From assembly GCA_965223075.1 (NCBI GenBank), contig OZ244986.1:3116101-3180100 (forward strand): a DNA stretch of 64,000 nucleotides. The letters run 5' to 3'. Below are positions 24,692 through 48,724 of this stretch, one piece after another. Position 1 is the first letter of the stretch. The number at the start of each line of letters is the position of its first letter. The notes under the pieces were generated by a model. It was not told the DNA's origin, searched no databases, and worked only from the letters and a program-made list of their open reading frames with translations. The position numbers were made by a program, and so were the translations under genes. This DNA is from Candidatus Marinacidobacterium sp. (GTDB lineage: Bacteria; Acidobacteriota; Vicinamibacteria; Marinacidobacterales; Marinacidobacteraceae).

Positions 24692-26671
24692 TCACTCCCC
24701 GGTGGGGTAGCGGATGTCGGTGGTCAGGAACTCCTCGAAGAAATTCAGCATGTCGCTGAGTTTCCGGATCGTGTTCTCCCTCCCGTACACGTAATACCCC
24801 TCATCCGGATACGCCTTGTATCGCACGATCTTGTAGTACTGGTCGAGTTTGCGCGCGAAGTTCAGCGCGGCCTGCGGTTGGCCTTCGCGAATCCGCCAGC
24901 CGGCCGCCACTCCTTCACCCTGGATCACGAAGGTCGGCGTCGTGACCTGGTGCGCCTTCAGGATGGCGGAGCTGTTCCGGTACGTCTCGCGGTTTTCGGG
25001 ATACGGGCCGAGTTCGTACTCGAGCAGCTTGATGTGCTGGAGCTCCTGGACCGTGGTGTGGAACTCGGTCATGTCGCCGTAGCCCGACAGCGAGATGGCC
25101 GCCTGGAAGACCCCGGGGGCGAAGGCGACCGCCGCCATGGTCATGATCCCGCCGTAGCTGGTTCCGGTGATCCCGATCCGGTCGCGGTCCACGTCGGAAC
25201 GGCTCTTGAGGTAATCCACCCCCGCGAGGACGTCCTCGAGGTCGCAGTGTCCCCAGCAACCGTTGTTGAGGTCCTCGAAGGCGAGGCCGTAGCCGGAACT
25301 GCCGCGAATGTTCGGCATGAGCACGACGTAACCGCGCTGGGCGAAGAAGTGGACCTGCTGATGCCGCCGGAACTGGTTGTCGAACTGGGACGTGGGTCCG
25401 CCGTGGATCCAGAGCAGGCCGGGGAAGCGTTCGGCGGGAGCTGCGTCCGGCGGCCGGTGCAGGTAGGCCTCGATGGTGAGGCCGTCGGTGCTCGGGTAGC
25501 GGATTTTTTCGGGGAGCCGGATTCGGGGGTTGGCGTCCAGGCCGATTTCGCTGTGCACCAGCGCGCTCTCTCCCGAAGCGACGTCGAGCACGAAAAGCTC
25601 CGCGGGACGCACCGGGGTCTCGAAGGTGTAGCTGATCCGGTTCCCCTCGGGCGACCACTCGGGACGGAGCGCCGCTCCGGCCTCCCGCTCCACGAGAGTC
25701 CGGCCCCCGGACCCGTCCGCCGCCGCCAGCCGCAGGGAATGCACGCCGCCCTGGTTCTCGGTGTAGCTGACCCAGGCGCCGTCGGGCGACCAGCGGGCGT
25801 CGCTCTGGTCATGGTCCGAAGCCGCCAGGGGCCGGGGCTCGCCCCCCGTGCGCGGCGCGATCCAGAAGTTCAGCCAGCCGCTGCGCTGGGAGCGGAAGAG
25901 CAGGTGCTCACCGTCGGGCGACGGTTGGACGGCGCCGAACGCCCGGCCCGCGCGGTAGTCGAAAAAGCCGCGGTCCGTCACCACGGTGCGCGGATTCCGG
26001 CCGTCAGGGGTGATCTCGATCACGTCGTGATCCACCCAGCGGTCGTCCATGCGCACGTAGAAGAGCGCCCCGGAATCCGGGGCCCAGCTCGGATACCCCT
26101 CGTAGAGCGGGTCGCTGGTCAGCCGGTGCACCTCTCCCCCGGCGACCGACACCTTCCAGATGTCCATGTTGCCGAACCGGTCGCCGGCGAACGCGATCCA
26201 TGCCCCGTCCGGAGACCAGGAGAGCCCGTTCGCCCGCGCCGAGAGCCGGGTGAGCCGCCGGTCCGTGCCCTCCTCGGCCGACCACAGCCAGATGTCGGGC
26301 GCGCCGTCGCGGTCGGAGGTGTAGGCGACGAAGCGCCCGTCGGGCGACCAGACCGGCTGCGGGGCCCCCAGCGATCCCACCCCGCTGAGCGTCAGGTCCC
26401 GGGTGAGAATCCGGAACGACCTGTCCTCGGGGTCCACGCCGGCGAGGTCGCCCGCGGCCGACACGAATGTGATCAGGGATCCGTCCGGCGCCCATTGCGG
26501 GGAAAGACTTCCCCCGACCGCGGCTCGAAGGTCCATCAGTGCGGCGGCGCCGATCGGGCCGGCAGCCACGTCGGCGGCCCCGGGCGGCGGGCCGCTTTCC
26601 TCCGGCGAACACGCGAGCCCCCCGGCGAACGCGAATCCGGCCGCGATGACGGAAAAACGGTGCTGTCTCAT
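24692..26671 (-). CDS. S9-family peptidase homologue (PD40/TolB-like propeller plus alpha/beta hydrolase), lipoprotein-like, catalytic His/Asp not conserved
   Basis: GGLAC lipobox-like motif, WSPDG repeats, IHGGP, NIRGSSGYG and GTSYGG. The C-terminus reads IQGEG...YPDEGYY instead of HGxxD...EGH. Confidence 0.88.
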   Translation of the reverse strand: MRQHRFSVIAAGFAFAGGLACSPEESGPPPGAADVAAGPIGAAALMDLRAAVGGSLSPQWAPDGSLITFVSAAGDLAGVDPEDRSFRILTRDLTLSGVGSLGAPQPVWSPDGRFVAYTSDRDGAPDIWLWSAEEGTDRRLTRLSARANGLSWSPDGAWIAFAGDRFGNMDIWKVSVAGGEVHRLTSDPLYEGYPSWAPDSGALFYVRMDDRWVDHDVIEITPDGRNPRTVVTDRGFFDYRAGRAFGAVQPSPDGEHLLFRSQRSGWLNFWIAPRTGGEPRPLAASDHDQSDARWSPDGAWVSYTENQGGVHSLRLAAADGSGGRTLVEREAGAALRPEWSPEGNRISYTFETPVRPAELFVLDVASGESALVHSEIGLDANPRIRLPEKIRYPSTDGLTIEAYLHRPPDAAPAERFPGLLWIHGGPTSQFDNQFRRHQQVHFFAQRGYVVLMPNIRGSSGYGLAFEDLNNGCWGHCDLEDVLAGVDYLKSRSDVDRDRIGITGTSYGGIMTMAAVAFAPGVFQAAISLSGYGDMTEFHTTVQELQHIKLLEYELGPYPENRETYRNSSAILKAHQVTTPTFVIQGEGVAAGWRIREGQPQAALNFARKLDQYYKIVRYKAYPDEGYYVYGRENTIRKLSDMLNFFEEFLTTDIRYPTGE

Positions 26672-26799
26672 GACCCCGGCTCCTTCTCGATCCGGCCGCG
26701 ACCCCGGCGGCCGGAACACAGGACGGAGACTACTGGATGCGCGACGCGGATTCCGCGCCACGAGGGGTCAACAGCCTGTGGAGAAAGTGACGTGAGCAC

Positions 26800-27750
26800 C
26801 GAGAACGGCCAGTCCTCCCGGTGGGGAGCCGTTTCAGCCGGGATGCATCGCCGTTCGAATGCCGTGTGACTTTTTCCACCGGCTGTTAGCCCGCATTTCT
26901 CATACTCACCGTCGCAGGAAGGGCTCGACTCGCCGCAGCACGACGGCGGGGACGGCTTGGAACGCCGGCCTCCGGCCGGCACAGCCCGCCGAAGGCGGGC
27001 GGCGGGAAGGACTCCCCGTTCCGGGGTGGTCCCTTGACGGCGGGAATCTCAGCGTTCGGCGGGATCCGTACAACGGAGTGGCAGACGCCGTTTGTCGCAG
27101 TGCGGGCCACGTGCCTGCGTTCCGTGAAGGCGGACGGCAAGGAACCGCCCGTGACCCTGGGGGTCGCTGTGTTGGGTCCCACCGGGAGAAACGCGCATGA
27201 TCGGTCCGTCTGCACACCAAGCCGGGCAAGAAATGCCGCGGCACTCACGCTGGCTTGGTGCCGCGTCATCCGTGCTGGTTTCGCGCTCCCGCGCGTGCCG
27301 GCCGGAGGCCGGCTTTCCAAGCCGTTCCTGCCGTTGCGCCGTTGGCCATACGCCATCTCATCTGTTGGGGGGTACGTGCCGAGACGGGAGCCATCCCGGC
27401 GATTGAGGTCTTCGCCGCCGCGGTCCTGCGGGCCGCTGTGCCGGCCGGAGGCCGGCGTTCCAAGCCGTCCCCGCCATGGCGCCATCAGCTCTACGCGCTC
27501 TCGGGTCCATCCGCGCTGTCGGCGTCCGGTCGCGCCTGCTATTCACGGCAACCGGTGGGAGGTCGGTGTCCCCTATCCACACCCCGTCACGTCGATCAGC
27601 GCCGGCGCGTTACGCGTAACCGGCATCCCCGTCAGCAGGTTGCGATGCCTTGGCGTGCGCTCCGGGCCGTGAGTATGAGAAATGCGGGGTAGGAGCACGT
27701 GGTCCTTCAACCCGGGACTGGTGGACGCCGTCTGGAGGGGCGTCCTGATG
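26800..27750. repeat. Large composite REP/BIME-like cluster (about 0.9 kb non-coding)
   Basis: Hairpins at 26959-26982, about 27297-27320 and 27438-27461; modules B and C; a 15-bp insert variant at 26811-26825. Confidence 0.8.
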
Positions 27751-27872
27751 CGGACCCCGGCGGGCTTCTGACGCTGATGCGGGGACGGCCTCCGAGCGGG
27801 TAGTCTCTCCCCTTCATCCAGCGTATCTGCGGGAGGGCCGTCCGCCCTGCCGCAAGACCAGGAGGAGACACC

Positions 27873-29144
27873 ATGTTCCGAAACAGGACCGGCGCGCTTT
27901 GCGCCATTCTCTTAGCCGCCCTTTTGCTTCTTGGCGCGTGCGCTCCTACCGAGGAGGCGCCGCAGTCGAACGCCACCGTGTTCCACGGGGCGACGGTGAT
28001 CGTGGGCGACGGCAGTGACCCGATCGAAAACGCCACCTTCGTCGTGGAGGACGGCCGCTTCGTCGCTGCGGGCGGGGCGGACGAGGTCATGGCGCCGGAG
28101 GGCGCCGCTCATGTGGATCTCAGTGGCCGGACCGTCATTCCGGCGCTCATCGATACGCATGTGCACCTCTCCGTGCCGCGCGACGCCCTGATTGACGATC
28201 TGCAGCGGCGCGCCTACTACGGCGTCGGGGCCGCGGTGAGCCTCGGGCACGACGACGGCGACGCGACGGCCGCGGTCCGGGACGCCCCCGTCGCGGGAGC
28301 GGCTCGCGCGATGACCGCCGGCCAGGGGATCACCCGGCACGAGCCGGGACGCTCGGAAGTCCCCTACTGGATCAACACTCCCGAGGAGGCGCGGGCGGCG
28401 GTCCAGGAACTCGCTGGCGCAAACGTGGACTTCGTGAAGATCTGGGTGGACGACCGCGGCGGCCAGTTCGACAAGCTGACCCCGGAGCTCTACGGCGCCG
28501 TCATCGACGAAGCGCACCAGCACGGCTTGCGGGTGACCGCCCATATCTTCTCGCTCGAAGATGCCAAGGGACTGCTGGAGGCCGGGGTGGACTCGTTCGC
28601 CCATAGCGTCCGGGACATGGACGTGGACGACGAGTTCGTGGCGATGGTCCAGGAGCGGCCGAACGTCGTCCTGATTCCGAACCTTGGCGGCCGCGGCGTC
28701 CATGATGACGTGAGCTGGCTCTCCGGGACCCTGACCGCCGAAGCGCTCGAGCAGGCCCAGGCCGCGCACATGGACCGTCCGGAGGCCCACGAATCCTTCG
28801 GCATCCAGGCGCGCAACCTCGCGCGGCTGAACGAGGCCGGGATGAAGATCGCCATGGGCACCGACGGGAACGCCGGCTGGCGGCCCCACATCGAGATGCT
28901 GGACATGGTGGAGTCCGGGATGAGCCCGCACGAGGTGATCGTCGCCTCCACCGGGGCCGCCGCCGAGTACCTGATGATGGACGACACGGGCACGATCGCG
29001 GCCGGTAAGAGCGCCGACTTCGTGGTCCTCGAGGCGAACCCGGTTGAGGACATCACGAATACCCGGCGCATTGTGTCCGTGTACCTCGGGGGCGAGGAAG
29101 TGGACCGGGCCGGCCTGAGCGCCGGCTGGGTCGGGAGCCAGTAA
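27873..29144 (+). CDS. Amidohydrolase-family lipoprotein
   Basis: LLLGAC lipobox, IDTHVH, VKIW, TAHIF, FAHS, MGTD and GKSADFVVL. Confidence 0.9.
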   Translation: MFRNRTGALCAILLAALLLLGACAPTEEAPQSNATVFHGATVIVGDGSDPIENATFVVEDGRFVAAGGADEVMAPEGAAHVDLSGRTVIPALIDTHVHLSVPRDALIDDLQRRAYYGVGAAVSLGHDDGDATAAVRDAPVAGAARAMTAGQGITRHEPGRSEVPYWINTPEEARAAVQELAGANVDFVKIWVDDRGGQFDKLTPELYGAVIDEAHQHGLRVTAHIFSLEDAKGLLEAGVDSFAHSVRDMDVDDEFVAMVQERPNVVLIPNLGGRGVHDDVSWLSGTLTAEALEQAQAAHMDRPEAHESFGIQARNLARLNEAGMKIAMGTDGNAGWRPHIEMLDMVESGMSPHEVIVASTGAAAEYLMMDDTGTIAAGKSADFVVLEANPVEDITNTRRIVSVYLGGEEVDRAGLSAGWVGSQ

Positions 29145-29156
29145 GCGCTAGCCGCG

Positions 29157-29588
29157 ATGAAACATGCCCACACCATCAGTTGGGTGATCTTTGCCCTGCT
29201 GGGAGCCATCACCGTGCTGGTTTCTCTGACCTCCCTCAGCGCCGCCTACCTGAACCCGGATGCCGACCTGATCGGCGGCCGGTTCACCCCGGAGCAGCTC
29301 GCTGACGGGGACCCGGAACTCGCCGCGGCGCTTTCCGCTCGGCGGGGCACGGCCGCCGCGTTCGGCCTCTCCTACGGGATCTTGCTGTTCGGGATCGCGT
29401 GGGGCCCGTATCGCCGGAGGGGCCGGCTGTTCCGCCTCCTGCTGGCGGCCGGCCTGGTGAACACGGTGGTGATCCTGCTTCGGCTTCCGGTGCTGGGCAT
29501 AGGCCTCGGCCTCGTCACGGCCCTGGTTCCATTGGCGCTGATCCTGATCGCTGCCGTGCTCGGGGTGATGGCCCGCCGCCAGGCCTGA
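29157..29588 (+). CDS. Hypothetical four-TM membrane protein
   Basis: 143-aa ORF with four hydrophobic segments, directly downstream of the amidohydrolase. Confidence 0.65.
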   Translation: MKHAHTISWVIFALLGAITVLVSLTSLSAAYLNPDADLIGGRFTPEQLADGDPELAAALSARRGTAAAFGLSYGILLFGIAWGPYRRRGRLFRLLLAAGLVNTVVILLRLPVLGIGLGLVTALVPLALILIAAVLGVMARRQA

Positions 29589-29667
29589 CGGGGGACGGGC
29601 CGGGTCGACCACGGGAAGGAGCCGGATCCGAGACCCGCGGTCCTGGTCTGGTCCGGAGGGACGTCGT

Positions 29668-30042
29668 CTGACTGACGCCGCGCGGGGCGACGCGGCGAAT
29701 CCGTCTGCCGAACCCAACTATGACGAGGCATACAGCAAGGACTCGTTTCGGAAGAAGGTCACCGCGTTTGCCCCAGCGGCGGGCAAAGAGGTGATTCGGG
29801 GGGCGCTGGTCCTGTACCGCTGCCTCCGCGACCCCAACACCCCGAAATGGGCCCGTACGCGCATCATTGGCGCGCTTGGCTACTTCATCTTCCCTTTGGA
29901 CGCCATCCCCGATGTCGTTCCGGTGGCCGGGTTCTCCGACGATCTGGGCGTGCTGGCTCTCGCGCTGGCCACCGTAGCGCTTCACATCAAACCGGAGCAC
30001 AAACAAAAGGCCGAGGAGAAACTCAAGACCTGGTTTCCTTGA
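29668..30042 (+). CDS. YkvA/DUF1232 family protein
   Basis: ALGYFIFPLDAIPDVVPVAGFSDDLGVL. The frame is open upstream (YSKDSFRKKVTAF...AGKEVI) to a CTG at 29668 preceded by GGAGGG; the track start is 29791. Confidence 0.8.
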   Translation: MTDAARGDAANPSAEPNYDEAYSKDSFRKKVTAFAPAAGKEVIRGALVLYRCLRDPNTPKWARTRIIGALGYFIFPLDAIPDVVPVAGFSDDLGVLALALATVALHIKPEHKQKAEEKLKTWFP

Positions 30043-30084
30043 GCCCCTCACATCCTGCGTTCCCTCACGAAAAGGACACACCCG

Positions 30085-31047
30085 ATGCGCATCGTTCCCC
30101 TTGCCGATATTCAGTCGGCTATCACCGCGAAAGCCGCCATCGAGGCCGTCAAGGCCGGATTCATCGCCCATGCGAGGGGCCAGGTGCACTGTCCCGAGCC
30201 CGTCCAGATCGTGTTCCGCGACGACCAGCAGGAACAACATGGCGAATGTCACGTCAAATCCGCCATTTGGAGCGGCCGTCCGTACGCCGCGGTCAAGATC
30301 GCATCGGGGTCGTACCGGAATGCGGCGCGCGGCCTGCCGGGCGCCGGCGGCATGATCATCATGATCGCTACCGACACCGGCCTTCCGGAGGCCATTCTCC
30401 ACGACGAGTGCTGGCTCACCAATGTCCGCACCGCTGCCGCCGGGGCCCTCGCCGCCGGCCTGAAACCGGTGTCGAACGACGCGACGCTGGGCGTGATCGG
30501 CACCGGGACCCAGGCCGAGATGCAGGCCACCATGATCTGCTCCCACCTGGGGCTTGGGTCGGTGTCGCTCTGGGGACGTTCCGCCGCCAAGGCGGCCACG
30601 CTCTGCGAGAAGCTACAGGCCGGAGGACTGGCGGCAACTCCGATGGAGACGGTCCGCGACGCCTGTCATTCCAGCGCCATCCTGGTCACCACTACCCCCG
30701 CGACGAAACCGGTCGTTCATCTGGAGGACGTTCCCGAAACGCTCCACATCGTCGCCGTCGGAGCGGACACGCCGGGGAAGACGGAGCTGGATCCGCGCAT
30801 TCTGGGAAGGGCTCACATCATCGTCACCGACGATCATCGGGAGTGCCTGCATCACAGCGACTTCGGCGAGGCAGTGAGAGCCGGCGCGGTCGCGGAGGAC
30901 GGCGACTGCTCCTTTGGCAAAATGCTGTCGCTCGCTACCCCGGATCCGAGGATGGCGCAGGACGGTATTTCGGTGGTGGATCTGACCGGCATGGGCGTTC
31001 AGGATCTCGCGATAGCGACAATGACTCTGAACGCGTTGACGGATTAG
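30085..31047 (+). CDS. Ornithine cyclodeaminase/mu-crystallin family protein
   Basis: HVKSA, LTNVRTAAAG, VIGTGTQA, VGADTPGKTEL and DLTGMGVQD. Confidence 0.9.
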   Translation: MRIVPLADIQSAITAKAAIEAVKAGFIAHARGQVHCPEPVQIVFRDDQQEQHGECHVKSAIWSGRPYAAVKIASGSYRNAARGLPGAGGMIIMIATDTGLPEAILHDECWLTNVRTAAAGALAAGLKPVSNDATLGVIGTGTQAEMQATMICSHLGLGSVSLWGRSAAKAATLCEKLQAGGLAATPMETVRDACHSSAILVTTTPATKPVVHLEDVPETLHIVAVGADTPGKTELDPRILGRAHIIVTDDHRECLHHSDFGEAVRAGAVAEDGDCSFGKMLSLATPDPRMAQDGISVVDLTGMGVQDLAIATMTLNALTD

Positions 31048-31084
31048 TAGCCCTTCCCCGTCAACCCCGCGGGGAGCAACCCCT

Positions 31085-31360
31085 TCGCGGCCCGCCGGGC
31101 CGCGGTGCCGGCCGGAGGCCGGCCCAGTTCTCCCGGTGGGGGCCCAAGCCGTCCCCGCGTTTTTCACTGGTGGCGATACGCGGCTCGCGGCCCCGCGGGC
31201 CGCGGTGCCGGTGTGAACACCGGCGTTCCCAGCCTTCGGCCGCGGTGCCGGTCTGAAGACCGGCGTTCCCAGCTGTCCCCGCGCTTTTTCACTGGTGGCG
31301 ATACGTGGTCCGCCCCGCTGCGCGGGGCTGTGCCGGCCTGAAGGCCGGCGTTCCCTTACC
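31085..31360 (-). repeat. REP-like cluster of four hairpins
   Basis: Hairpins at about 31105, 31205-31230, 31245-31270 and 31330-31355; 15-bp insert at 31126-31140; TTTTTCACTGGTGGCGATACG repeated at about 31160 and 31285. Confidence 0.8.
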
Positions 31361-31434
31361 ACGGCAGAACACGGTATGGCACTGGCGCCATCCGTTCTCA
31401 AGCGTAAAATCGGCAACGGAGAGGGGGAACGACG

Positions 31435-32484
31435 ATGAAGATCAGGATCCTGTTGTTCGCATGCCCGGCGCTGGCCGTGTCGATCGGCTGGGCGGCCGCA
31501 AATCACGACATTGCCGGAGAGATGATCGACCGGGCGCGGCATTTCCTTGCCTCGCTCGATCCCGAGCAAAAGTCCCGGGCGACGTTCGCGTTCGACGACG
31601 AGGAGCGGTTCAACTGGCACTTCATTCCGCGGGACCGGGAAGGACTGCCCTACGGGGAGTTCACGCCGCCGCAGCGACGGCTCGCTGATCTCCTGCTCGG
31701 CACCGCGCTCAGCCACGACGGCATCAGCAAGGCGCTCGGCATCATGTACCTCGAACAGATCCTCTACGAGCGCGAAGGCCGCGACATTCGTGATTCGGAC
31801 CGCTATTACTTCACGGTGTTCGACGAGCCGTCGGACTCGGGCGCCTGGGGCTGGCGCGTCGAGGGGCATCACCTGTCGCTCAACGTCACGCTCAACGACG
31901 GCGAGGTCGCCGCGACCTCACCGGCCTTCATGGGCAGCAATCCGGCGATCGCCGAGGAAGGCAAGCACGCGGGTCTCGAGGTGCTCGCGGCGGAGCAGAC
32001 GGTAGCGAGGGAGCTGCTCGCGCTCTTCGACGGTCCGGCGCGCGACAAGGTCATCTTCGATCCCGAGGCGCCGCCCGACATCCTGACGGGCACGGACCGG
32101 ATCGCCGAACCCGGGGAACCGCTCGGGGTCGCGACCCGTGACATGACCAGGGAGCAGGCCGACAAGGTCATCGAGCTCGTGCACGTCTATACCGGCCGGC
32201 TGCGGCTCGAACTGGCCAGGGACGAGTTCGCCAAGGTCGAGGCGGCCGGCCTCGAGAACATTCATTTCGCGTGGGCCGGCAGCGCCGAACCGGGCGACCC
32301 GCACTACTACCGGATCCACGGCCCGACGTTCCTCATCGAGTACGACAACACGCAGAACGACGCCAACCACATCCACTCGGTCTGGCGCGATCTGAGCGGA
32401 GACTTCGGCAGGGATCTCCTCGCCGAGCACTACTCGGCGTCGCATTCGGGACGGGTCGCAGGGGGCCCCGGCGCCGGGAGGTAA
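31435..32484 (+). CDS. DUF3500-family secreted protein
   Basis: ERFNWHFIPRDREGL, WGWRVEGHHLSLN, YYRIHGPTFLIEYDN and NHIHSVWRD. Confidence 0.85.
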   Translation: MKIRILLFACPALAVSIGWAAANHDIAGEMIDRARHFLASLDPEQKSRATFAFDDEERFNWHFIPRDREGLPYGEFTPPQRRLADLLLGTALSHDGISKALGIMYLEQILYEREGRDIRDSDRYYFTVFDEPSDSGAWGWRVEGHHLSLNVTLNDGEVAATSPAFMGSNPAIAEEGKHAGLEVLAAEQTVARELLALFDGPARDKVIFDPEAPPDILTGTDRIAEPGEPLGVATRDMTREQADKVIELVHVYTGRLRLELARDEFAKVEAAGLENIHFAWAGSAEPGDPHYYRIHGPTFLIEYDNTQNDANHIHSVWRDLSGDFGRDLLAEHYSASHSGRVAGGPGAGR

Positions 32485-32526
32485 GGCCGAAGGCCGCAGG
32501 CTCCCGAGGCCGAGCGTCAGCTAGCG

Positions 32527-32552
32527 ATGCCGGTCTGAAGACCGGCGCTCCC
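32527..32552 (-). repeat. Single REP-like hairpin
   Basis: ATGCCGGTCTGAAGACCGGCGCTCCC is near-identical to the reverse complement of 41159-41184. Confidence 0.75.
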
Positions 32553-35468: not shown

Positions 35469-35543
35469 CGGCGGCCGCCTCCGGCCGGCCTCGACTCGCA
35501 TCGGCCCGGAACGCCCTCCGGGCTTCGGTGCGGAACCTTCCGG

Positions 35544-38382: not shown

Positions 38383-38830
38383 GATACGGGCGTCCGTCGC
38401 TGCCGACCTCCTCCGAGCGGCTGCGCACGTCGGAGACCCCGGCCGGCGCCTCGGGGAACATGGGGTCGTAGCCGTCGCGCACCTCCTCCCAAAGGATGGA
38501 CTGGGTCATGGGGTCTCCGGGGATTTGCCGGAGATAGCCGGAGACGACGAGATCGGCGAGGTTCGCGGGGAACTCGTCGTGGTCGGCCCGGTACTGGTCG
38601 AGCCGCTCCCGGAGCGTCGCGAGGTTGTGTTCGAGGACCGCCTCCTTCGCCTTGAGGATCTGCGCCTGGTAGCGGGGCACCGCGATGGCGAACAGGATCC
38701 CCAGGACGAGCAGCACCAGCACCATCTCGATGAAGCTGAACCCGGCGGTCTTTTCTTGCCGCTGCGCGGAGCGGTCTTGCCGCTGCGCGGGGCGGCCGGC
38801 GTGGCGCGCGCGGGCGGTCTTTGTCACCAT
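38372..38830 (-). CDS. GspG-like pseudopilin
   Basis: G|FSFIEMVLVLLVLGIL, KAKEAVL and YLRQIPGDP. Confidence 0.88.
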   Translation of the reverse strand: MVTKTARARHAGRPAQRQDRSAQRQEKTAGFSFIEMVLVLLVLGILFAIAVPRYQAQILKAKEAVLEHNLATLRERLDQYRADHDEFPANLADLVVSGYLRQIPGDPMTQSILWEEVRDGYDPMFPEAPAGVSDVRSRSEEVGSDGRPYREW

Positions 38831-39330
38831 GATCGATACGGCGTGCCGTCGAGGGCGAGGCGGGGGGAGGCGGAGCGGAGGTCGTAGACGTTCTGGCCGC
38901 CCCAGGAGAGTCTGCCCGGGTCGTCCTGATAGGAGCGCAGCAGCCAGTCGGCGCGCCCGGTGATCGGATCCGCCGGCAGGCGGCGGAGGAAGCGGATGAC
39001 CGGCGTCCTCCCGTCCGGCCCGCGGGGGCCGGGGACTCCCTCCACGAGCGCCTCCAGATCGGGCGGGTAGTTCTCGTGGTCGGGCTCGATGAAGTCGGGA
39101 TCGATCTCGCCGGCCTCGGCGGCCTCCCGGTAGGCGTCGATCGCCATCCGGACGGTGCGGAGGTTCCTGCGTAGTTCGATCTCGTCGGCCCGCACGGATG
39201 CGACCTTGGCCACCGGGATGATCCCCATCGCCAGCACCGCGAGGATGCCGGCCGCCACTACCAGCTCGATGAGCGTGAAACCGCGCTGGCCGGCCGGCCG
39301 GCGGATTCCGGTTTCGAGATGACGCGGCAT
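38824..39330 (-). CDS. GspG-like pseudopilin
   Basis: RG|FTLIELVV, ELRRNLRTVRMAIDAY and FLRRLPADP. Confidence 0.88.
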   Translation of the reverse strand: MPRHLETGIRRPAGQRGFTLIELVVAAGILAVLAMGIIPVAKVASVRADEIELRRNLRTVRMAIDAYREAAEAGEIDPDFIEPDHENYPPDLEALVEGVPGPRGPDGRTPVIRFLRRLPADPITGRADWLLRSYQDDPGRLSWGGQNVYDLRSASPRLALDGTPYRSW

Positions 39331-40562: not shown

Positions 40563-40638
40563 GGGGCAGGCCTTGGTGATGGTAAACGGGGGAGGTGGTG
40601 CCGTGCTTTTTTCGGCACCTGACCGCTAGACTCGCTTC

Positions 40639-41151
40639 ATGAGTCGAAAGAAGACTGCCAGGACGAAACGCCGGCTACGTTCGGCTGGAGCCCGTTCGGG
40701 AGGCTTTCGCAACGAGCAGGTGCTTTCCGAGAACCGGAGGGCGCGGCGGAACTTCGTGATCCTCGAGCAGTTCGAGGCGGGAGTCGCGCTCACCGGAGCC
40801 GAGGTGAAGTCCTGCCGGGCAGGCGGGGCGAACCTGAAGGACGCCTACGGCCGCGAGCGGAACGGCGAACTCTTCCTCGTGAACTGCCATATCGCGCCCT
40901 ACGTGAACGCCCCCCCGGAGCAGGGGAATCCGGAACGGAACCGGAAGCTGCTGCTCCACGAGGACGAGATGCAGCGGATCGCCGGGAAGCTGACCACCGC
41001 GGGCCTCACGCTGGTGCCGCTCCGCATCCATCTCCGGAACGGCTGGATCAAGGTGCAGGTAGCGCTCGCCAAGGGCAAGAGCACCCGCGACCGCCGCGAA
41101 ACCATCCGCAAGCGCGAAGCCGACCGCGAAGTCCGCGAAGCCCTGGGCTAA
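40639..41151 (+). CDS. smpB: SsrA-binding protein SmpB
   Basis: ENRRARRNF, EAGVALTGAEVKS, HIAPY, RKLLLH, TLVPL and ALAKGK...DRRETI. Confidence 0.96.
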   Translation: MSRKKTARTKRRLRSAGARSGGFRNEQVLSENRRARRNFVILEQFEAGVALTGAEVKSCRAGGANLKDAYGRERNGELFLVNCHIAPYVNAPPEQGNPERNRKLLLHEDEMQRIAGKLTTAGLTLVPLRIHLRNGWIKVQVALAKGKSTRDRRETIRKREADREVREALG

Positions 41152-41158
41152 GGACGCA

Positions 41159-41268
41159 GGGAGCGCCGGTCTTCAGACCGGCACCCGCCCGCGCAGCGGG
41201 CGGAACCGCGCATCGCTACGGAGAAAGAGCGCGCAGACGGCTGGGAGCGCCGGTCTTCAGACCGGCAC
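41159..41268 (+). repeat. Two identical 26-bp REP-like hairpins in direct orientation
   Basis: GGGAGCGCCGGTCTTCAGACCGGCAC at 41159-41184 and 41243-41268. The spacer CGCATCGCTACGGAGAAA is shared with 48836-48860. Confidence 0.85.
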
Positions 41269-41718
41269 GCGGCCCGTAGGGCCACGTTGAGTGTCGCGTA
41301 AGTCAATGAATGTTCTCGATGTTATACGTGATCCCCAAGAAGTGGACATCACATCAGGCGGCACATCCTCAATTGGCCGGAAACCCCGGGCCGAAGGGGG
41401 TAGCGGCAGGAAGCTTGGGCGCCGTCGAGCCCACCGGCTGGCGGGGTCTGGGACCGCAAGCCGCAGCTAGCGGAGCAGCGGCAGGAACATATCGCACCTT
41501 CGAACGCCTGCCGGGCGCGCGTGCATCGGGATGATCAACGCCGTGAAGGGGACGTGCTGGCCATCCACGACGATCACCGTGTGTCATTCGACCGGGAAGC
41601 GGAGCGCCGGCCTAAAGCATTGCCGGGCGTCCGGGAGTCCTGGGGCAGGCGCGAAACGGGCCGGGCTTCCCCGAGTGATGCACCCTCCGCGGGGTCACGC
41701 TCGGGGCCGCTTTCGGAA

Positions 41719-41759
41719 TAGCGGAAGTCAACACCCCCTTCCGCTACTACTTCCGCTAC
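41719..41759. repeat. Short direct and inverted motif array (candidate integrase arm-type sites)
   Basis: CTTCCGCTA at 41738 and 41750 (12-bp period), plus an inverted copy at 41719-41727. Confidence 0.45.
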
Positions 41760-42292
41760 CCCGTTCTCGCCACCGTGCGTCTCGAAACCCGTTGGCAGCG
41801 CTGCGGTTCGCTCGCAGGCTCCCGAACCGGACTCTCCGTTTGGGCGGAGAGTGGGGCTGGGAGCGACCCCCCTCCGAACGTCCGATCTACAGCCCCGCAA
41901 TCCGGACTTGTGCAAGCCCTTTTGCTACCTGTCAGGGTCGCTCCCAGCCCGCGCCTGCGGCGCGATCCATCCCTGCGGGAAGGCTTCGAACCCGCCTGGG
42001 CGGCGGGTGGGCGGCCGGCGACGTCTCCGCCGCCACGGGGTCCTCGATGCGGACGAAGGCACCGAGCCACCGCTCCCCGAGGCCGCTCTGGACCTCGTTG
42101 GCCCGCTCCCCGACGTTGGGGAGCCGGAGGGCCTCCGCCGGGGCGCAGGCGGCCTGTTCCGCCCGCGGGACGCGGGCGGCGACCACAACGGTGCGCCGCT
42201 ACGCCAGGAGCGCACCGGTGCGGGGTCCGGGGGCGCGCCCCCGTCCGTCCGTGGCTACCGCAGCGGCGCGAGAGGCCGGGGGTTCAGAAGGG

Positions 42293-42342
42293 GGGCATCG
42301 CCAAGGGCATCGCCCTCGCCAGCTCCAGTGTGTACACACTGG
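42293..42342. repeat. 10-bp direct repeats plus a perfect 18-bp palindrome
   Basis: GGGCATCGCC at 42293 and 42305 (12-bp period); CCAGTGTGTACACACTGG at 42325-42342. Confidence 0.5.
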
Positions 42343-42600
42343 GTAGGCTGGCTCTCGCTCTCGTGGCTTAGTGGTCATGTCGGGTGCCTTCGCTGACGCC
42401 TCGAACGTTGCCGCGAAAACACGGGAGCGGCCGGAGAGGCGAGCGTCACACACTTCGGGAACTGCGGATCGCTGCTCAGCTTGGAGGTGCGCACCAAGTG
42501 CGGTTCTCGACTCGTGCGCCGCCCAGATCCGTTGGCAGCGCCGTCCTGCCTCACCCGCGATGTCTGTGGCGTGTGATAGAACTGGCCCATTCCCCACCAA

Positions 42601-45075
42601 ATGGCGAAGCTAGTGGTCAGGGTGTCTTGGCCTGTCGTCGCCCTCCTGATCGCCGCGGCCGGCTGCGGCGGCGGCACGGACGGCGCACCCGCCGCGCCCC
42701 CGACCGCACCGGCGCCCCCGCCGGCACCAGCGCCGCCGCCCCCGCCAGCGCCTCCAATGACCGTGACCGGGACCGTGCGGGCGAGTGGCGGGCCGGCTTC
42801 CGTCGTGGCGGGCGCGGTGGTGCAGGCCAGGAATCTCGACACCGGGGCGGTGGACGGTGAAGCCACCACGGACATGGACGGCTCCTACGCCATCGAGGGG
42901 CTGCAGGGGGATCGCTACTCCATCGAGGTCACGCCCCCGTCCGGGTATCTCTCGGCTGCCCCGGTGCTCGTCAACCGGCCGGAAAGCGGCGACCTGGAAC
43001 TGAGCGCTGATTTCTCGCTGCTCTACTACACCCTCCCCGACGGAGCCGTGATCGCGTTGCCTGCCGACCGCCTGGTTTACAAAGCCGCCAACTTCTTCGA
43101 TCTCGAAGGGAAGACCGTGACCTTCACTCCGGACGGCGACGGTTACGCAGTCGCGGTGGACGGTCCGAGCTGGGAACAGCCGGGGCCAGCCGCCTCCACA
43201 TACCAGCTGGACGGCACCCGTCGTCCGTTTAGGGTGGTCGATCTGCCGTTTTCCTTTTCCTTCGCCGGGGCAACCTGGAACCGCGTCTACGCCAACGCGA
43301 ACGGCCACATCTCCTTCCAGCGCCCGGAGCGGGAGAACTGGCTGCAGCGCGACCCCTGGCCGGACGGAACGATGCGTTCCGTGGCAGCGGCCATTGACTC
43401 CCGCTCGGCCGCCGGACTGGAAGCCAAGATCGCAGCGCTGTGGGCCATCTACGGGGACATGACGCTTTCCGTCGATTCCACTCCCGCCCGGGCGGTGTTC
43501 AGTTGGGCGGCGACCCGTCCGATGCCTGCCTATGCGTTTCACGCGCCACTCGGCCCCAACGTGTTCCAGGCGCGGCTTTACCCGTCCGGAAGGATTGAAC
43601 TCGCCTACCGCGCGGTGGCGGAACGGGACGGCTTCGTGGGTCTGTTCCGCACCCTGAGCGGACGCGGCCGCATTCTGGACGCGCCCGCTGAGGCGGCCGG
43701 GGACGTCGAGGAGCCGGTGGTGGACATCACCGACCTGGAGCTGGTGGACACCGGCAGCACCCTGCTCTTCAGGATGACGCTGGCCGCGGATGTCCCGGAA
43801 CAGGTGGACGACGGCGAGATCGCCTATCTGATCTTCTTTCGTTTCGGCGAGTACGACTGTGTGGCTAGACTCGCAGTAAACGCGAACGGACGGGAACCGG
43901 TCTGGCGCTGTCGGCCGGCTCCGCATAGCTTCGGCCATCGGGTGCGCGGATCGACCGTCGAGTTCTTTGTTTCCAAGACGCTCTTCCACGGTGCGGACCG
44001 CTTTGCATGGGACGCCGACGTGGTGTGGCGGGCACGGGAGCAATTCGATCACATAGACGAAGTCGGCACGGCGCGGATGGATCGGACGGACCTCGACCTC
44101 GGCGCGCTAGCGGGGACGGTGAACGGAAACGTGTTCGAGGTGTTCCACTACCCGGTGGTTCCGAAGTCCATAGACCACGTTACGTCATACATCTACGAAC
44201 AGGTACCGGCAAACGATGAAATCGCCGTGCTGTTCACGGACTTCCGCATCGACGACCTGTACGGCCACGGACCGAGCACGGGACCGCTCAATGTGGCGGT
44301 TCAAGGGATCGGCGCTTCCAACGCCGATCCCCGCTCGGGCGAAGACTACGGCTCGCAGAGCCTGCTGGTCAGCATGGCGCCGCAGTTCATCGGGGGAGAG
44401 AACCTCTGGAGGGAAACCGGCCTGGGCGAGAACGGCCACCCGTTCCGCAACTTTGCGGAGGGAATCTGGTGGACCGCGCACGAAGCCACTCACCGATGGG
44501 TCGCGCGCATACTGTTCCGGAATCCCCTCTCCGGACAGATCGAGAGCTTGCGAGATGACGGTAGTCATTGGAGTAGGTTCCTCCACTCACCTGCGGTATA
44601 TCCGGTGTGGCCGGGTTTTTCGGGTGAACGCTACGTCGAGAGGTCGGTCAATGGTGGAGGCGTCTGGAGGGACAACGGCGACGGAACCTTCACCCGGCAG
44701 GACGACGGGAGAGCGTTGGCGCGTGGCCTTTCAGCACTCGATCTCTACGCGATGGGGATGATTCCGCCGGAAGAGGTACCCGATACATTCATACTGCGCG
44801 TTGCCGAGGGAGCGCGGCCTGAGGGAACGGTCAGGGCGACGAAGGTGCCCGTCCGCATCGAGGACGTGATCGCGGCGATGGGGCCGCGCGCGCCCGCGGC
44901 GGATGAGTCCCGCAAGGAGTTCCGGCTGGGGGTCTACCTGCTGCACGACGGCATAACGCCCCGGCCGGACCTGCTCCAGCGGGCGCGGGGCGTCTCGGCA
45001 GCGGTCGCCGAGTACTTCTTCCGGGCCACCGGCGGCCGAATGATGGTGTTGCCGAATCCGGACTCCACACCCTAG
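42601..45075 (+). CDS. Large lipoprotein with Pro-rich linker, carboxypeptidase-regulatory-like domain and HExxH motif
   Basis: AAAGC lipobox, APPPAPAPPPP linker, TTDMDGSYAIEGL, HEATHRW and LDLYAMGMIP. Confidence 0.75.
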   Translation: MAKLVVRVSWPVVALLIAAAGCGGGTDGAPAAPPTAPAPPPAPAPPPPPAPPMTVTGTVRASGGPASVVAGAVVQARNLDTGAVDGEATTDMDGSYAIEGLQGDRYSIEVTPPSGYLSAAPVLVNRPESGDLELSADFSLLYYTLPDGAVIALPADRLVYKAANFFDLEGKTVTFTPDGDGYAVAVDGPSWEQPGPAASTYQLDGTRRPFRVVDLPFSFSFAGATWNRVYANANGHISFQRPERENWLQRDPWPDGTMRSVAAAIDSRSAAGLEAKIAALWAIYGDMTLSVDSTPARAVFSWAATRPMPAYAFHAPLGPNVFQARLYPSGRIELAYRAVAERDGFVGLFRTLSGRGRILDAPAEAAGDVEEPVVDITDLELVDTGSTLLFRMTLAADVPEQVDDGEIAYLIFFRFGEYDCVARLAVNANGREPVWRCRPAPHSFGHRVRGSTVEFFVSKTLFHGADRFAWDADVVWRAREQFDHIDEVGTARMDRTDLDLGALAGTVNGNVFEVFHYPVVPKSIDHVTSYIYEQVPANDEIAVLFTDFRIDDLYGHGPSTGPLNVAVQGIGASNADPRSGEDYGSQSLLVSMAPQFIGGENLWRETGLGENGHPFRNFAEGIWWTAHEATHRWVARILFRNPLSGQIESLRDDGSHWSRFLHSPAVYPVWPGFSGERYVERSVNGGGVWRDNGDGTFTRQDDGRALARGLSALDLYAMGMIPPEEVPDTFILRVAEGARPEGTVRATKVPVRIEDVIAAMGPRAPAADESRKEFRLGVYLLHDGITPRPDLLQRARGVSAAVAEYFFRATGGRMMVLPNPDSTP

Positions 45076-45369
45076 CGTCGGCTACCACCGACGGGAATGT
45101 CGGCATTGCCGACGGTCCCGGGTTGCGAACCACCTCGCGTCACGTAGTGTCTTTGGCGCGCGACTCGGAGAGGAACGGTGAACAACGGGCGCGACTCCGG
45201 TGCTGGCGTCCTACGGTCACGCCCTCGGGATGCCGGACTTCGCCGCCCAGTGTGGCCTCGCCAAGGACCTCGCCGCCCGACCCCTCCGGATGATCTTGGA
45301 ATGCCGTCCGCTCGGACACGCGCCCGAAATCTCGTGCGTCTGCAACGTGACGCGGGCGGCGACCACGAA

Positions 45370-45501
45370 GGTGCGCCGGTAGGCCGCCTCGATGCTGTTC
45401 GTGTTCGCATGGCCCAGTGCCAGCTCGCAGATCTCGCGCGGCGCGTCCGTGCACTCTGCCGCCCAATCCCGGAAGCTCGCCCGAAACGCGTGTGGCACCG
45501 C
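45370..45501 (-). pseudogene. C-terminal fragment of a P4-like tyrosine integrase
   Basis: AVPHAFRASFRDWAAE...EICELALGH...IEAAYRRT contains the HxxR, H and catalytic Y motifs. Confidence 0.8.
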
Positions 45502-45998
45502 GATCTCCACCTTCAGGCGCTCGTCCGCCCGTGCCCGCCGGCTGGCGCCGCGGTCGCACCACCCGTAATACCCACTCCGGGAGACGCCCAGCAACCCCGC
45601 CATCGCCCGCACGCTCATCTCGGCCTGGCTCGCAGCCATCAGTCGATACCTCCCGACGACGTCTCCCGAGCGAACCAGGCCGCCGCTTTTTTAAGAGGCG
45701 TTCTCCCGCTTCAACCGCCGGTTCTCACGCTCCAGCCGCTGCAACTCCTCCCGCTCCTCCTTCGTCCAGCCGTCCGCCGCGCGACCCTCCGCCGCATCCG
45801 CCTGCATCACCCAGCGCCGGATCGCTCGCGGACTCGCCTCATATTCCAGGGCGACTTCCTCCGCGCTCCGGCCCGACCGCACCAGCGCCACGATCCGCTT
45901 CCGATACTCCGCCGTATACCGACGTCCGTTCTTGGCCAACTCAGACCTCCTCCGTGCCACTGGCACTATGAGTGGGTCGATCTACCGGGGCAACTCCA
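45502..45998 (-). mobile_element. Truncated IS3-family element (left end, OrfA, start of OrfB)
   Basis: 5'-TGGAGTTGCCCCGG end at 45998; OrfA from TTG 45939 (RRYTAEYRKRIVALVRSG...ELQRLERENRRLKRE); AAAAAAG slippery motif at about 45686-45692; OrfB start (GVSRSGYYGW) cut after 46 codons. Confidence 0.85.
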
Positions 45999-46126
45999 CT
46001 CCGGCCGGCATCGCTCCCCGCAGGGCCGCACGCGGTGAATCGCTGATCCGCCGAATCACTCCACCGCCCCGGCCGGTGATCTCCACCCGGTACCCTCCGG
46101 ACAGGAGCGAACCAAACGAACCCAAC

Positions 46127-46630
46127 GTGACGGACCTGACCGAGGAACTCGGCGCCTGGGACGGCAAGTCCGCGGCCCCATTGCAGTCGATCTACGAGCG
46201 GCATGGCGCTGACGAGGACTTCGTCGCGACGATCCTGGCTCGTTTTCCGGATGCAAACCTCCAACGGGCGGCCACCTGGCTGTTGAAACGACACCTGGAA
46301 CTCGGAAATCCCCTCTCCGCTCGCGAGTGCCGTTCCATCCTGGGCAGTCTCTCCGTCCAGCAGGACTGGGAAAGCAGGCTGCACCTCCTCCAGTGCCTTC
46401 CCCATCTGAGCATTCCCGACGAAGACCGCGTTGGTCTCGAGCAGTTTCTGGATGCGTGTGTCAGGAGCGACAAGAAGTTCGTCAGGGCGTGGGCCTACAG
46501 CGGGTACAACGAATTGGCGCTGCGTTTTCCGCAAACCCGGGAGGCGGTGGACGGCCTGCTTGCCCGGGCCGCCGGGTCGGAGGCTGCGTCGGTCCGGGCG
46601 AGGATTCGCAACCTGCGCAAAGGGCGCTGA
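46127..46630 (+). CDS. Hypothetical helical-repeat protein
   Basis: WDGKS..., WESRLHLLQCLP, KFVRAWAYSG and AASVRARIR; GTG start inferred. Confidence 0.7.
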   Translation: MTDLTEELGAWDGKSAAPLQSIYERHGADEDFVATILARFPDANLQRAATWLLKRHLELGNPLSARECRSILGSLSVQQDWESRLHLLQCLPHLSIPDEDRVGLEQFLDACVRSDKKFVRAWAYSGYNELALRFPQTREAVDGLLARAAGSEAASVRARIRNLRKGR

Positions 46631-46669
46631 GCCAGCCGCGAGGCCCGGCCGCCCGTTCAGCCTCGGACC

Positions 46670-46735
46670 GGCGCATCCCCGTAGAATCGGTCCCCGGCCA
46701 CCGGACCTATATCGGGAGGCAACGGGAGGTTCCCC
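46670..46735 (+). promoter_or_regulatory. Putative promoter and RBS homologous to those upstream of 49993
   Basis: CCCCGTAGAATCG (TAGAAT 46682-46687) and ACGGGAGGT match 49942-49954 and 49979-49987. Confidence 0.55.
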
Positions 46736-48724
46736 ATGCCCTCAGTCACCAGAATCAGCGCCCTCTCAGCCCTCTCGCTCGCACTCCTCGCCGCCCCCAC
46801 CGCCGCCCAGGATCCCGAAACCCGCCGCCCGGTCGCCGGCCGGAGCGCAGCCGAACCGCTTCCCGTGGAGACGCTCCTGTCGCTCTCCTCTGCCGTGGGC
46901 GGCGAGACGCCGCGCTGGGCCCCGGAAGGCGACCGGATCCTCCTGGGTGGCTCGAACCTGCGGCTCATCCGTGCCGAAGGTGGCGCGATCAGCGAACTGC
47001 CGGTGGCTACGGGAGGCAGCGGTCATTTTCTGGCGTCGGCCGAGCCGCAGTGGTCGCCGGACGGACAATGGATCTCCTATGTCTCGGACAGGAGCGGCAC
47101 ACCGGAGGTCTGGCTCTGGTCCGTTGCGGGAGGCGAGGCGTTCCGCATCACCGGGAACGGCGGCCGGCTGATCAAGGGCTACTCCTGGTCGCCGGACGGG
47201 CGCCGGATCGCGTTCTCCGGCAATCGTCACGGGCAATACGACGTGTGGACGGTGGAGGTCCCGTCCGGGGAGGCTCACCGGCTTACCGACGGACCCGAAC
47301 TGGAGGTCTATCCCGCCTGGAGCCCCGATTCCGCGTCTGTCCTGTTCGTCCGACTCGATGGCGAATGGATGGACCATGAGGTTGTGGAAGTCCCGGCCGA
47401 CGGCGGTGAAGAGCGGGTCATCGTGCGCGACGAGGACTTCTTCGACTACGGGGAGGGCGGCACGTTCGGCTATCCCCTGGTCTCCCCGGACGGCTCCACG
47501 GTGGTGTTTCCGTCCTACCGCTCGGGTTGGATCAACTACTGGGGCGTGCCCCGGTCGGGAGGAGAACCCAGGCCGCTGGTGGCGGCCGAGGCCGACCAGA
47601 CGGAAGGTGCCTGGTCCCCAGGCGGCGGAGGGTTCGCGTACGTCGAGAACCACGGGGGCACCTACCAGCTCCGAATCGCGCCGGCAGGTGGCGGAGAGCC
47701 GCGCGTCATAGCGGCTCCCGAGTCCGGAATCATCGGTGCGCCTCAGTGGTCTCCGGACGGCAGCCGCATCTCCTACACCCTCGAGACGCCGACTCGCCCC
47801 GGGGATCTGGTTGTCCATGCCCTCGCATCGGGGAAGTCGTCCAGGCTGACCGATTCGATGCCGATGGAGGCGATCGAGAATCGCCTGGTCATGCCCGCGA
47901 AGTTGGCGTTCTCGAGCGGGGACGGCCTGGCGATCCCCTCCTATCTCTACCGGCCCGGCGCCGGGCGGGGCGACGAAGATCGCCGCTATCCGGCGATCGT
48001 CTGGACCCACGGCGGACCCACGTCGCAATGGGAGGACAGCTTCGAATCCGCGATCCAGTTCTTCGTTCAGCGTGGCTACGTGGTACTGCTGCCCAACGTG
48101 CGCGGAAGCTCCGGGTATGGCCGCGCGTTCGAGGAGGCCAACGACGGCTGCTGGGGCAAGTGCGACTTCGCGGATGCGGTGGCGGCCGCGGAGTACCTCC
48201 GAACCCTCCCGTACGTCGACCCGGTGCGCATTGGAACCACCGGAACCAGCTACGGAGGGTTCATGTCGTGCGCGGCGGTGAGCTTCGGCGGCGAGACCTT
48301 CCAGGCCGTGATCGCGGCGTCCGGCTACTGCGACCGGGTCACCTTCTTCGAGGACGGCGAATTCCGCCACCTGCAGCAGCTGCGCAAGGAGATGGGGCGG
48401 CTCGAGGAGCACAGGGATCGCTACCTCGCGAACTCCCCCTACTATCACCTCGCCGATGCCCGGGTACCCGTCTTCGTGCTCCACGGCGAGGGACGCTATC
48501 CGGGCTCACCGCAGATGACCGAATTCTTCCGGGAGCTGCAGCGCCTCTACAAGCCCGCCCGCTACAAGGCCTACGCAGGCGAGAACTTCTACGTCAGAGG
48601 CTTCGAGAACAGGATGGAGATGCTCGCCGACATGAAGGCGTTCTTCGACTTCTATCTGCTGGGAAAGGACATCGAGCTCCCGGGGGTCGGGTATCTGGAG
48701 GAACTCGAAGGCGTGTCCCACTGA
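46736..48724 (+). CDS. Second S9-family peptidase homologue, secreted, catalytic His/Asp not conserved
   Basis: WSPDG repeats, THGGP, NVRGSSGYG and GTSYGG. The C-terminus reads LHGEGRY...YAGENFY. Confidence 0.88.
   Translation: MPSVTRISALSALSLALLAAPTAAQDPETRRPVAGRSAAEPLPVETLLSLSSAVGGETPRWAPEGDRILLGGSNLRLIRAEGGAISELPVATGGSGHFLASAEPQWSPDGQWISYVSDRSGTPEVWLWSVAGGEAFRITGNGGRLIKGYSWSPDGRRIAFSGNRHGQYDVWTVEVPSGEAHRLTDGPELEVYPAWSPDSASVLFVRLDGEWMDHEVVEVPADGGEERVIVRDEDFFDYGEGGTFGYPLVSPDGSTVVFPSYRSGWINYWGVPRSGGEPRPLVAAEADQTEGAWSPGGGGFAYVENHGGTYQLRIAPAGGGEPRVIAAPESGIIGAPQWSPDGSRISYTLETPTRPGDLVVHALASGKSSRLTDSMPMEAIENRLVMPAKLAFSSGDGLAIPSYLYRPGAGRGDEDRRYPAIVWTHGGPTSQWEDSFESAIQFFVQRGYVVLLPNVRGSSGYGRAFEEANDGCWGKCDFADAVAAAEYLRTLPYVDPVRIGTTGTSYGGFMSCAAVSFGGETFQAVIAASGYCDRVTFFEDGEFRHLQQLRKEMGRLEEHRDRYLANSPYYHLADARVPVFVLHGEGRYPGSPQMTEFFRELQRLYKPARYKAYAGENFYVRGFENRMEMLADMKAFFDFYLLGKDIELPGVGYLEELEGVSH

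Follow-up and report, generated by a model that had tools for sequence, protein, structure and literature searches.

What is a peptidase-like protein kept for when two of its three catalytic residues are gone? This question is raised by two paralogous genes, here called gene 1 and gene 2, in a 64,000-nucleotide stretch of Candidatus Marinacidobacterium sp. (contig OZ244986.1, positions 3,116,101 to 3,180,100 of the forward strand); the whole stretch is referred to as the window, and coordinates of the two genes are given in it. Both genes encode homologues of family S9 peptidases in which the nucleophile serine is kept and the catalytic Asp and His are missing. An earlier note on this DNA had described this pattern together with a replacement motif common to both proteins, and had suggested a subfamily under selection, either a ligand-binding pseudoenzyme or one with alternative chemistry. 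Residue numbers are those of the gene 2 protein throughout.

Serine retained, catalytic Asp and His lost

Both open reading frames (ORFs) were intact and located as the earlier note had them. The frame of gene 1 is open upstream as far as a GTG at 26761, and the ATG at 26671 is the likely start, since the orthologues are 659 amino acids long. The G+C content at third codon positions was 0.88 and 0.84 in the two genes, which is the signature of genuine coding sequence, and a hydrophobic signal sequence was present at the N-terminus of both proteins. The alignment with Pfam Peptidase_S9 that had been proposed as a check gave a match in both proteins after the PD40 repeats (E 2e-39 for gene 1 and 6.5e-38 for gene 2); with PF00326 scores of 135.6 and 130.8 bits, above the gathering score of 22.6, the hydrolase domain is an S9 homologue. 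AlphaFold models built from the family alignment reached a predicted local distance difference test score (pLDDT) of 92.0 and a predicted template modelling score of 0.90 for gene 2, and 89.6 and 0.88 for gene 1; they matched full-length S9 structures and, like the PD40 repeats, revealed an N-terminal beta-propeller over the hydrolase domain. For gene 2 the top Foldseek ranks were occupied by S9 enzymes only, namely 8wt1, Deinococcus 5yzn, bacterial DPP4s, 5l8s and 7c72. All NCBIfam matches (TolB, lasso isopeptidase, Dpp5) were far under their cut-offs, and no curated family was found for the clade described below, Pfam offering the generic Peptidase_S9 only. The two proteins are 45% identical across 633 residues, and gene 1 falls in a subclade with an insertion after strand beta7.

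The catalytic positions were compared in a MAFFT alignment of 24 family members and the 32 nearest canonical relatives, the latter drawn from a search of 1.84 billion representative proteins, and in HMMER alignments in which gene 2 and a profile of 60 family sequences were matched to the solved S9 enzymes 8wt1, 5l8s, 5yzm/5yzo and 4hxe. The HGGP, PNxRGSxGYG and GxSYGG motifs and the C-terminal helix aligned readily between family and canonical relatives. In the HMMER alignments the catalytic Asp of H(G/S)xxD, in the loop after strand beta7, is matched by Arg587, and the catalytic His of the (E/D)xH loop after strand beta8 by Phe618. The MAFFT columns agreed: Asp was present in 32/32 canonical sequences, where family members have R, V, L, F or A, and His in 32/32 canonical sequences, where all 24 family members have Y or F. 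One pairwise alignment hinted at a 2-residue deletion at the Asp with the following Arg kept, whereas the multiple alignment is gap-free there. No Asp or His was found in the two former catalytic loops, on which three independent alignment methods and four solved structures were concordant. Thus, of the residues of an active S9 enzyme, the nucleophile Ser in GxSxGG is present in both proteins and the catalytic Asp and His are not, as the earlier note had stated.

The same picture was obtained with 219 full-length members. Ser505 and His425 were each found in 218/219, and Tyr506 and HGGP were essentially invariant. Position 618 was occupied by Tyr in 190 members and Phe in 27, and Tyr619 was present in 217/219, whereas canonical relatives have His-Gly at 618-619. 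The strings on which the earlier note was based are all present (GTSYGG in both proteins, IQGEGV and DEGYYVYGREN in gene 1, LHGEGR and GENFYVRGFEN in gene 2), and its codons, TAT at 24794-24796 and TTC at 48587-48589, are exact. A replacement motif is indeed shared, but instead of YKAYxxEx(Y/F)YVxGxEN it is better given as YK...(Y/F)..E.(Y/F)Y(V/I)....N.

A clade under purifying selection with new invariant residues

For each gene, all of the 120 best homologues in the database had the replacement pattern. When genomes were scanned at one per prokaryotic species, 80 loci were retrieved, which fell into two sets: the 48 with at least 37% identity all had the family signature, and the 32 with at most 30% identity all had HGxxDxRVP and EGHG. 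The survey of the motif that had been called for therefore comprises 219 full-length homologues and 48 genome loci from three phyla, all without the Asp and the His. In the maximum-likelihood tree all 28 sampled family members lay on one side of a single branch and all 32 canonical sequences on the other, with a support of 100 in the Shimodaira-Hasegawa-like approximate likelihood ratio test; the stem of the family clade measures 0.58 substitutions per site. Most members belong to Gemmatimonadota (Longimicrobiales, Gemmatimonadales, Candidatus Palauibacter); others are found in Chloroflexota (Anaerolineae, Dehalococcoidia, SAR202, Chloroflexia) and in Acidobacteriota (Marinacidobacterales, Vicinamibacteria). 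For gene 1 and gene 2 alike, the closest named relatives point to Longimicrobiales (Gemmatimonadota). Several paralogues per genome are usual among related genomes, with two or three family members on one contig.

Selection on both genes is purifying. The ratio of nonsynonymous to synonymous substitution rates (dN/dS) was 0.12-0.20 for gene 2 against five orthologues and 0.33 for gene 1 against one orthologue, its closest. For the hydrolase domain alone the values were 0.09-0.20, so that constraint on it is no weaker than on the propeller. Two hallmarks of a pseudoenzyme family, loss of essential residues in an intact fold and purifying selection across lineages, were thus found, and the proposal of a selected subfamily, as opposed to two decayed genes, is borne out.

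In these alignments the loss of the triad coincides with the gain of about fifteen invariant residues, which were identified in the comparison of 24 family members with 32 canonical relatives and again when the comparison was repeated on the genome loci (Table 1). In the hydrolase domain, His545 was found in 219/219 and Glu542 in 218/219 members, where canonical relatives have G or L and D or R, respectively; Tyr531, Gly586, Tyr605, Tyr619 and Asp632 (Arg or Lys in canonical relatives) complete this group. In the propeller, loop 233-254 is an insertion wholly missing from canonical relatives. It has no secondary structure and yet a pLDDT of about 90 in the AlphaFold model of gene 2, which is more in keeping with a loop packed at an interface than with an exposed loop. 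His214 was present in 217/219 members (S, Q, R or A in canonical relatives), and Trp265, Asn267 and Gln288 are further propeller invariants. The DSSP strand pattern assigns each of the new propeller residues to a beta2-beta3 or beta4-beta1' loop of neighbouring blades, which puts them all on the same face. This face would look into the interdomain cavity, because the chain enters beta1 from the N-terminal helix packed on the hydrolase domain and exits after beta4. Cys472 and Cys476 covary, being C/C in about 215 and D/G in 4 of 219 members, with D...G in canonical relatives; a disulfide is probable for this pair and would fit an exported protein.

For Tyr531 and His545 a location in the substrate pocket can be proposed. 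The C-terminal segment of Aeropyrum pernix acylaminoacyl peptidase that was used for comparison agrees with the numbering in Table 1 of PMC4394528 at Ser445, Tyr446, Val471, Phe485, Phe488, Asp524, Arg526, Thr527 and His556. The gene 2 protein and the A. pernix enzyme agree in the length of the segment that runs from the Ser to the conserved Gly behind the helix (49 residues), and gapless mapping puts Tyr531 at Val471, Glu542 at Asp482 and His545 at Phe485. Tyr531 is also at the position of the pocket residue Val656 of DPP4. Val471, Phe485 and Phe488 are among the A. pernix residues that contact ligands docked at the catalytic Ser (PMC4394528). Since Tyr531 and His545 map on or beside Val471 and Phe485, they probably help to form the wall of what was the substrate pocket, at the S1 side of the serine, a site that would be natural for a specificity or binding residue and unusual for a general base. 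Pairwise alignment of gene 1 reproduced the gapless mapping and that of gene 2 shifted the helix by two residues; the register at His545 is uncertain by about 2 residues, or about half a turn.

One branch within the family, a third type of paralogue, has degenerated further. It comprises P0129, placed there by the tree, and L045 (3001-4794) and L046 (3001-4881), placed there by alignment. These proteins have lost both former catalytic loops by deletion and have ALAN or DIRG in place of E-x-x-H; the Ser, the propeller motifs and the cysteine pair persist. Judged by these deletions the branch cannot use a hydrolase-type base, and its persistence argues that the core function of the clade needs none. 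L046 shares a metagenome-assembled genome (JAPPHB01, RHO1_bin_70) with L006, the 85%-identical and closest orthologue of gene 2 in the genome collection. This assembly is labelled Gammaproteobacteria, whereas equally close gene 2 orthologues are labelled Longimicrobiales or Gemmatimonadetes; it is probably mis-binned or mislabelled.

Table 1. Features of gene 1 and gene 2 with their positions in the window
Feature	Position	Strand	Remark
Gene 1	24692..26671	-	659 aa from the ATG at 26671; exported protein with PD40 propeller and S9C-like alpha/beta-hydrolase domain
Gene 1 signal peptide (MRQHRFSVIAAGFAFAGGLAC)	26609..26671	-	read off the sequence; possible weak lipobox, predicted
Gene 1 FFDYR	25952..25966	-	matching propeller insertion motif
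Gene 1 CWGxC	25241-25261	-	cysteine pair
Gene 1 nucleophile elbow GTSYGG	25148..25165	-	kept
Gene 1 Glu-Leu-Gln-His	25034..25045	-	E-x-x-H
Gene 1 Val at catalytic Asp position (QGEGV)	24908..24910	-	followed by an insertion of ~6-9 residues
Gene 1 Tyr at catalytic His position	24791..24796	-	followed by the invariant Tyr
Gene 2	46736..48724	+	662 aa; paralogue of gene 1 with identical architecture
Gene 2 signal peptide (MPSVTRISALSALSLALLAAPTAAQ)	46736..46810	+	read off the sequence; residues 1-40 of low pLDDT
Gene 2 Trp211-x-Asp-His214	47366..47377	+	propeller beta2-beta3 loop; Trp211 and His214 family-specific invariants
Gene 2 FFDYG	47438..47452	+	propeller loop 233-254; Phe236-Asp237-Tyr238 invariant
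Gene 2 HGGP, His425-Pro428	48008..48019	+	oxyanion-hole motif; kept, invariant in family and canonical relatives
Gene 2 Cys472...Cys476 (CWGKC)	48149..48163	+	covarying pair
Gene 2 nucleophile elbow GTSYGG	48242..48259	+	Ser505 codon 48248-48250; kept
Gene 2 Tyr531	48326..48328	+	family-specific invariant; I/V/F in canonical relatives
Gene 2 Glu542-Phe-Arg-His545	48359..48370	+	E-x-x-H; helix after strand beta6, predicted S1-pocket wall
Gene 2 Arg587 at catalytic Asp position	48494..48496	+	
Gene 2 Phe618 at catalytic His position	48587..48592	+	followed by family-invariant Tyr619

A ligand-binding reading and its alternatives

We favour, at a probability of about 0.5, the reading that both proteins are ligand-binding pseudo-peptidases in which the Ser and the oxyanion hole serve as a docking site. 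On this reading the clade is an ancient side branch, of single origin, of the S9C (acylaminoacyl-peptidase / S9 carboxypeptidase) peptidases; its Ser-Asp-His relay was dismantled, and the cavity at the domain interface was rebuilt and not left to decay. A peptide or another ligand bearing a carbonyl or carboxylate group would enter the cavity between propeller and hydrolase domain and dock with this group at Ser505 and at the oxyanion hole of HGGP and Tyr506. A remodelled, more polar S1 pocket (Tyr531, Glu542, His545, Tyr619) would accommodate the side chain of the ligand, and His214, Asp237-Tyr238, Trp265, Asn267 and Gln288 of the propeller face would cap the ligand. With base and acid both gone, the ligand would be held and not hydrolysed. 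The role of such proteins might be peptide scavenging outside the cytoplasm, substrates being captured or presented to neighbouring peptidases or importers. The near-invariance of Ser505, Tyr506 and HGGP in 219 members, while the two paralogues are only 45% identical, points to a serine under constraint, since a neutral Ser would drift. The binding reading is further supported by the new invariants, which map where a ligand would sit, and by the neighbours, which are repeatedly peptide- or amide-processing genes.

Several points weigh against it. The invariant His545 and Glu542, three residues earlier in one helix, look like a His-acid pair, and so do the invariant propeller residues His214 and Asp237; either pair might replace the lost relay. 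The claim that a base is lacking therefore holds for the canonical positions only, both Glu542-x-x-His545 and His214 with Asp237 having been missed in the earlier note. A His-to-Tyr/Phe exchange also occurs in plant carboxylesterase-like cyclases, which are true enzymes (PMC10873640). The cavity-side placing of the propeller residues derives solely from the chain-topology argument, and the lack of activity is deduced from sequence. No fixed neighbour, conserved operon or partner gene was seen among the six neighbourhoods compared. Of the earlier suggestion, then, the selected subfamily stands, with a pseudoenzyme only tentatively preferred to alternative chemistry.

It is conceivable, and we hold this tentatively as the next best reading, that the proteins are true enzymes with a rewired site, in which Ser505 would act with a relocated base and acid, or in which the oxyanion hole and the Tyr-rich pocket would serve a non-hydrolytic reaction. 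Ser505 and the oxyanion hole show the same strict conservation as in active enzymes, the family-specific His545 (219/219), Glu542, His214, Asp237 and Tyr619 arose where the triad was lost, and neighbouring genes encode catabolic enzymes. Moreover, [4+2] cyclases with Ser-(Tyr/Phe)-Asp are active and non-hydrolytic (PMC10873640), so that a His-to-Tyr/Phe change alone does not mean a dead protein. By homology, however, His545 lies on the P1/S1 side and not on the side from which a general base approaches, within the register uncertainty of about 2 residues, and position 618 cannot itself be catalytic, since Tyr and Phe alternate there. The L045/L046/P0129 branch has been maintained though both E-x-x-H and the Tyr-Tyr loop are lost, and we know of no S9 enzyme with a relocated His, which likewise counts against a rewired enzyme. 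That the family is active with a catalytic apparatus new to S9, be it His545/Glu542, a cross-domain His214/Asp237 pair or cyclase-like non-hydrolytic chemistry, appears unlikely to us.

Lower still we rate a function as protein-interaction subunits, comparable with DPP6 and DPP10, that is, as a scaffold or regulator of an envelope peptidase, an importer or a Tol-Pal-like partner, with a cavity that binds no small ligand. S9 pseudoenzymes are established as auxiliary subunits in the case of DPP6 and DPP10 (PMC4350108), the propeller resembles TolB, and the family-specific propeller residues cluster on one face (beta2-beta3 and beta4-beta1' loops) and persist in the L045/L046/P0129 subclade, which lacks the pocket residues. 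Contact through an outer surface would not explain why Ser505, HGGP, Tyr531 and His545 are so strictly conserved within the cavity, and none of the six gene contexts contained a conserved partner gene. A misaligned triad, or pseudogenes on their way out, can effectively be excluded. Pairwise alignments at about 20% identity do shift by a few residues, and the dN/dS of gene 1 against its closest orthologue is the higher one (0.33); against this stand the agreement of three alignment methods and four solved structures, with no Asp or His in the loops, as well as intact ORFs, confident models, hundreds of orthologues and dN/dS well below 1.

Genomic context, known systems and significance

The neighbourhoods compared were those in the window and at the loci L001-L005. 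In the window no obvious operon was found around gene 1 or gene 2. Gene 1 is divergent from an amidohydrolase gene and near an AbiEi gene and an LVIVD array; gene 2 is located between the gene of an 824-aa CarboxypepD_reg-domain protein, mobile-element scars and an M20-like gene. The L002 locus is syntenic with gene 1. In distant members a gamma-glutamyltranspeptidase gene is directly downstream (L003, 9026-10738; L005, 9117-10829), and a DUF885 gene adjoins members in L004 (5188-6981) and L005 (3318-4997); L005 also has an M28/M20 peptidase and L003 an amidase. In L001 (2901-7360) a SusC-like TonB-dependent receptor and SusD/RagB form a pair that lies immediately upstream of the gene 2 orthologue, which is 82% identical. 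The common theme of these genes seems to be extracytoplasmic peptide or amide processing, and the gamma-glutamyltranspeptidase and DUF885 neighbours may hint at gamma-glutamyl or peptide substrates.

Some further features of the region were recorded. Where L001 has the SusC/SusD pair, the window has the 824-aa lipoprotein and the mobile-element scars. The gap between the amidohydrolase gene and gene 1 (26672-27872) measures about 1.2 kb in the window and 176 bp in L002, so that an insertion may have occurred in this intergenic region. Four tandem paralogues of about 685 aa, split by a transposase gene at 17321-19096, occupy 7606-21709 of the window, and genes resembling them also flank family members in L002 and L005. 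These four ORFs (7.6-21.7 kb) were considered as S9 paralogues and rejected: they lack GxSxGG and HGGP, and the syntenic genes of L002 match Big_2/LVIVD only.

There is modest evidence for transcription of gene 2. Sponge metatranscriptome contigs span 48272-48693, in the 3' half of the gene, at 98-100% identity, although carry-over of DNA is possible. Contigs also pile up at 48760-48935, a repeat-like stretch just downstream of gene 2, to a depth of about 215 (run X24); many contig ends are loose there, as expected of a dispersed element of the repetitive extragenic palindromic (REP) type.

Non-peptidase homologues of S9 are an already known category. In sequence and fold the family is closest to S9C-type peptidases (Geobacillus 8wt1, Deinococcus radiodurans 5yzn, the acylaminoacyl peptidases 5l8s and 4hxe, A. 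pernix 1ve6), with which it has the two-domain build of PD40-type propeller and alpha/beta-hydrolase in common (8wt1 profile E 8.5e-74; Foldseek E 6e-41, template modelling score about 0.75). Unlike these enzymes it lacks the catalytic Asp and His and has invariant Tyr531, Glu542, His545, Tyr605, Tyr619 and Asp632, the FFDYG insertion, His214/Trp265/Asn267/Gln288 and Cys472/Cys476. DPP6 and DPP10, S9 pseudoenzymes that are subunits of Kv4 channels (PMC4350108), resemble the family in that an S9 fold was kept under selection after catalytic competence was lost. The pattern of loss is the reverse, since in DPP10 Gly has replaced the Ser while His and Asp remain, and in DPP6 the Ser position is taken by Asp; moreover, both are eukaryotic S9B membrane proteins, whereas the family is S9C-like and has no homologous partner. 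The best mechanistic analogy is the gibberellin receptor GID1, in which the triad His is lost and the nucleophile Ser, together with the Asp, is used in gibberellin binding (PMC3531792). GID1 differs in belonging to the unrelated hormone-sensitive-lipase family, in keeping the Asp and in having a lid instead of a propeller, so that this is an analogy and not membership. The [4+2] cyclases are alike in that the catalytic His is changed to Tyr/Phe, the Ser is kept and the proteins are functional (PMC10873640); they differ in belonging to another family, in keeping the Asp and in serving plant secondary metabolism.

What is particular to the clade is the polarity of the loss, with the Ser kept and Asp and His gone, as well as its size, its phylogenetic breadth and some 15 coordinated new invariants including E-x-x-H and the propeller insertion. 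No published description of it was found in a literature search, and hundreds of members carry the annotation 'S9 family peptidase' or 'prolyl oligopeptidase family serine peptidase'. Gemmatimonadota is the phylum with the highest reported density of S9 homologues (bioRxiv 10.1101/2024.09.22.614393). Because a clade without the classical mechanism is annotated as peptidase, peptidase inventories of Gemmatimonadota and of sponge symbionts are inflated. The clade also offers a clean natural experiment in functional change of alpha/beta-hydrolases, in which the Ser and the oxyanion hole stay, the relay is removed and about 15 invariants are added. Should its members prove to bind peptides, they would be extracytoplasmic capture proteins of a new kind; should they prove active, a protease family that has been studied intensively would gain a new catalytic arrangement.

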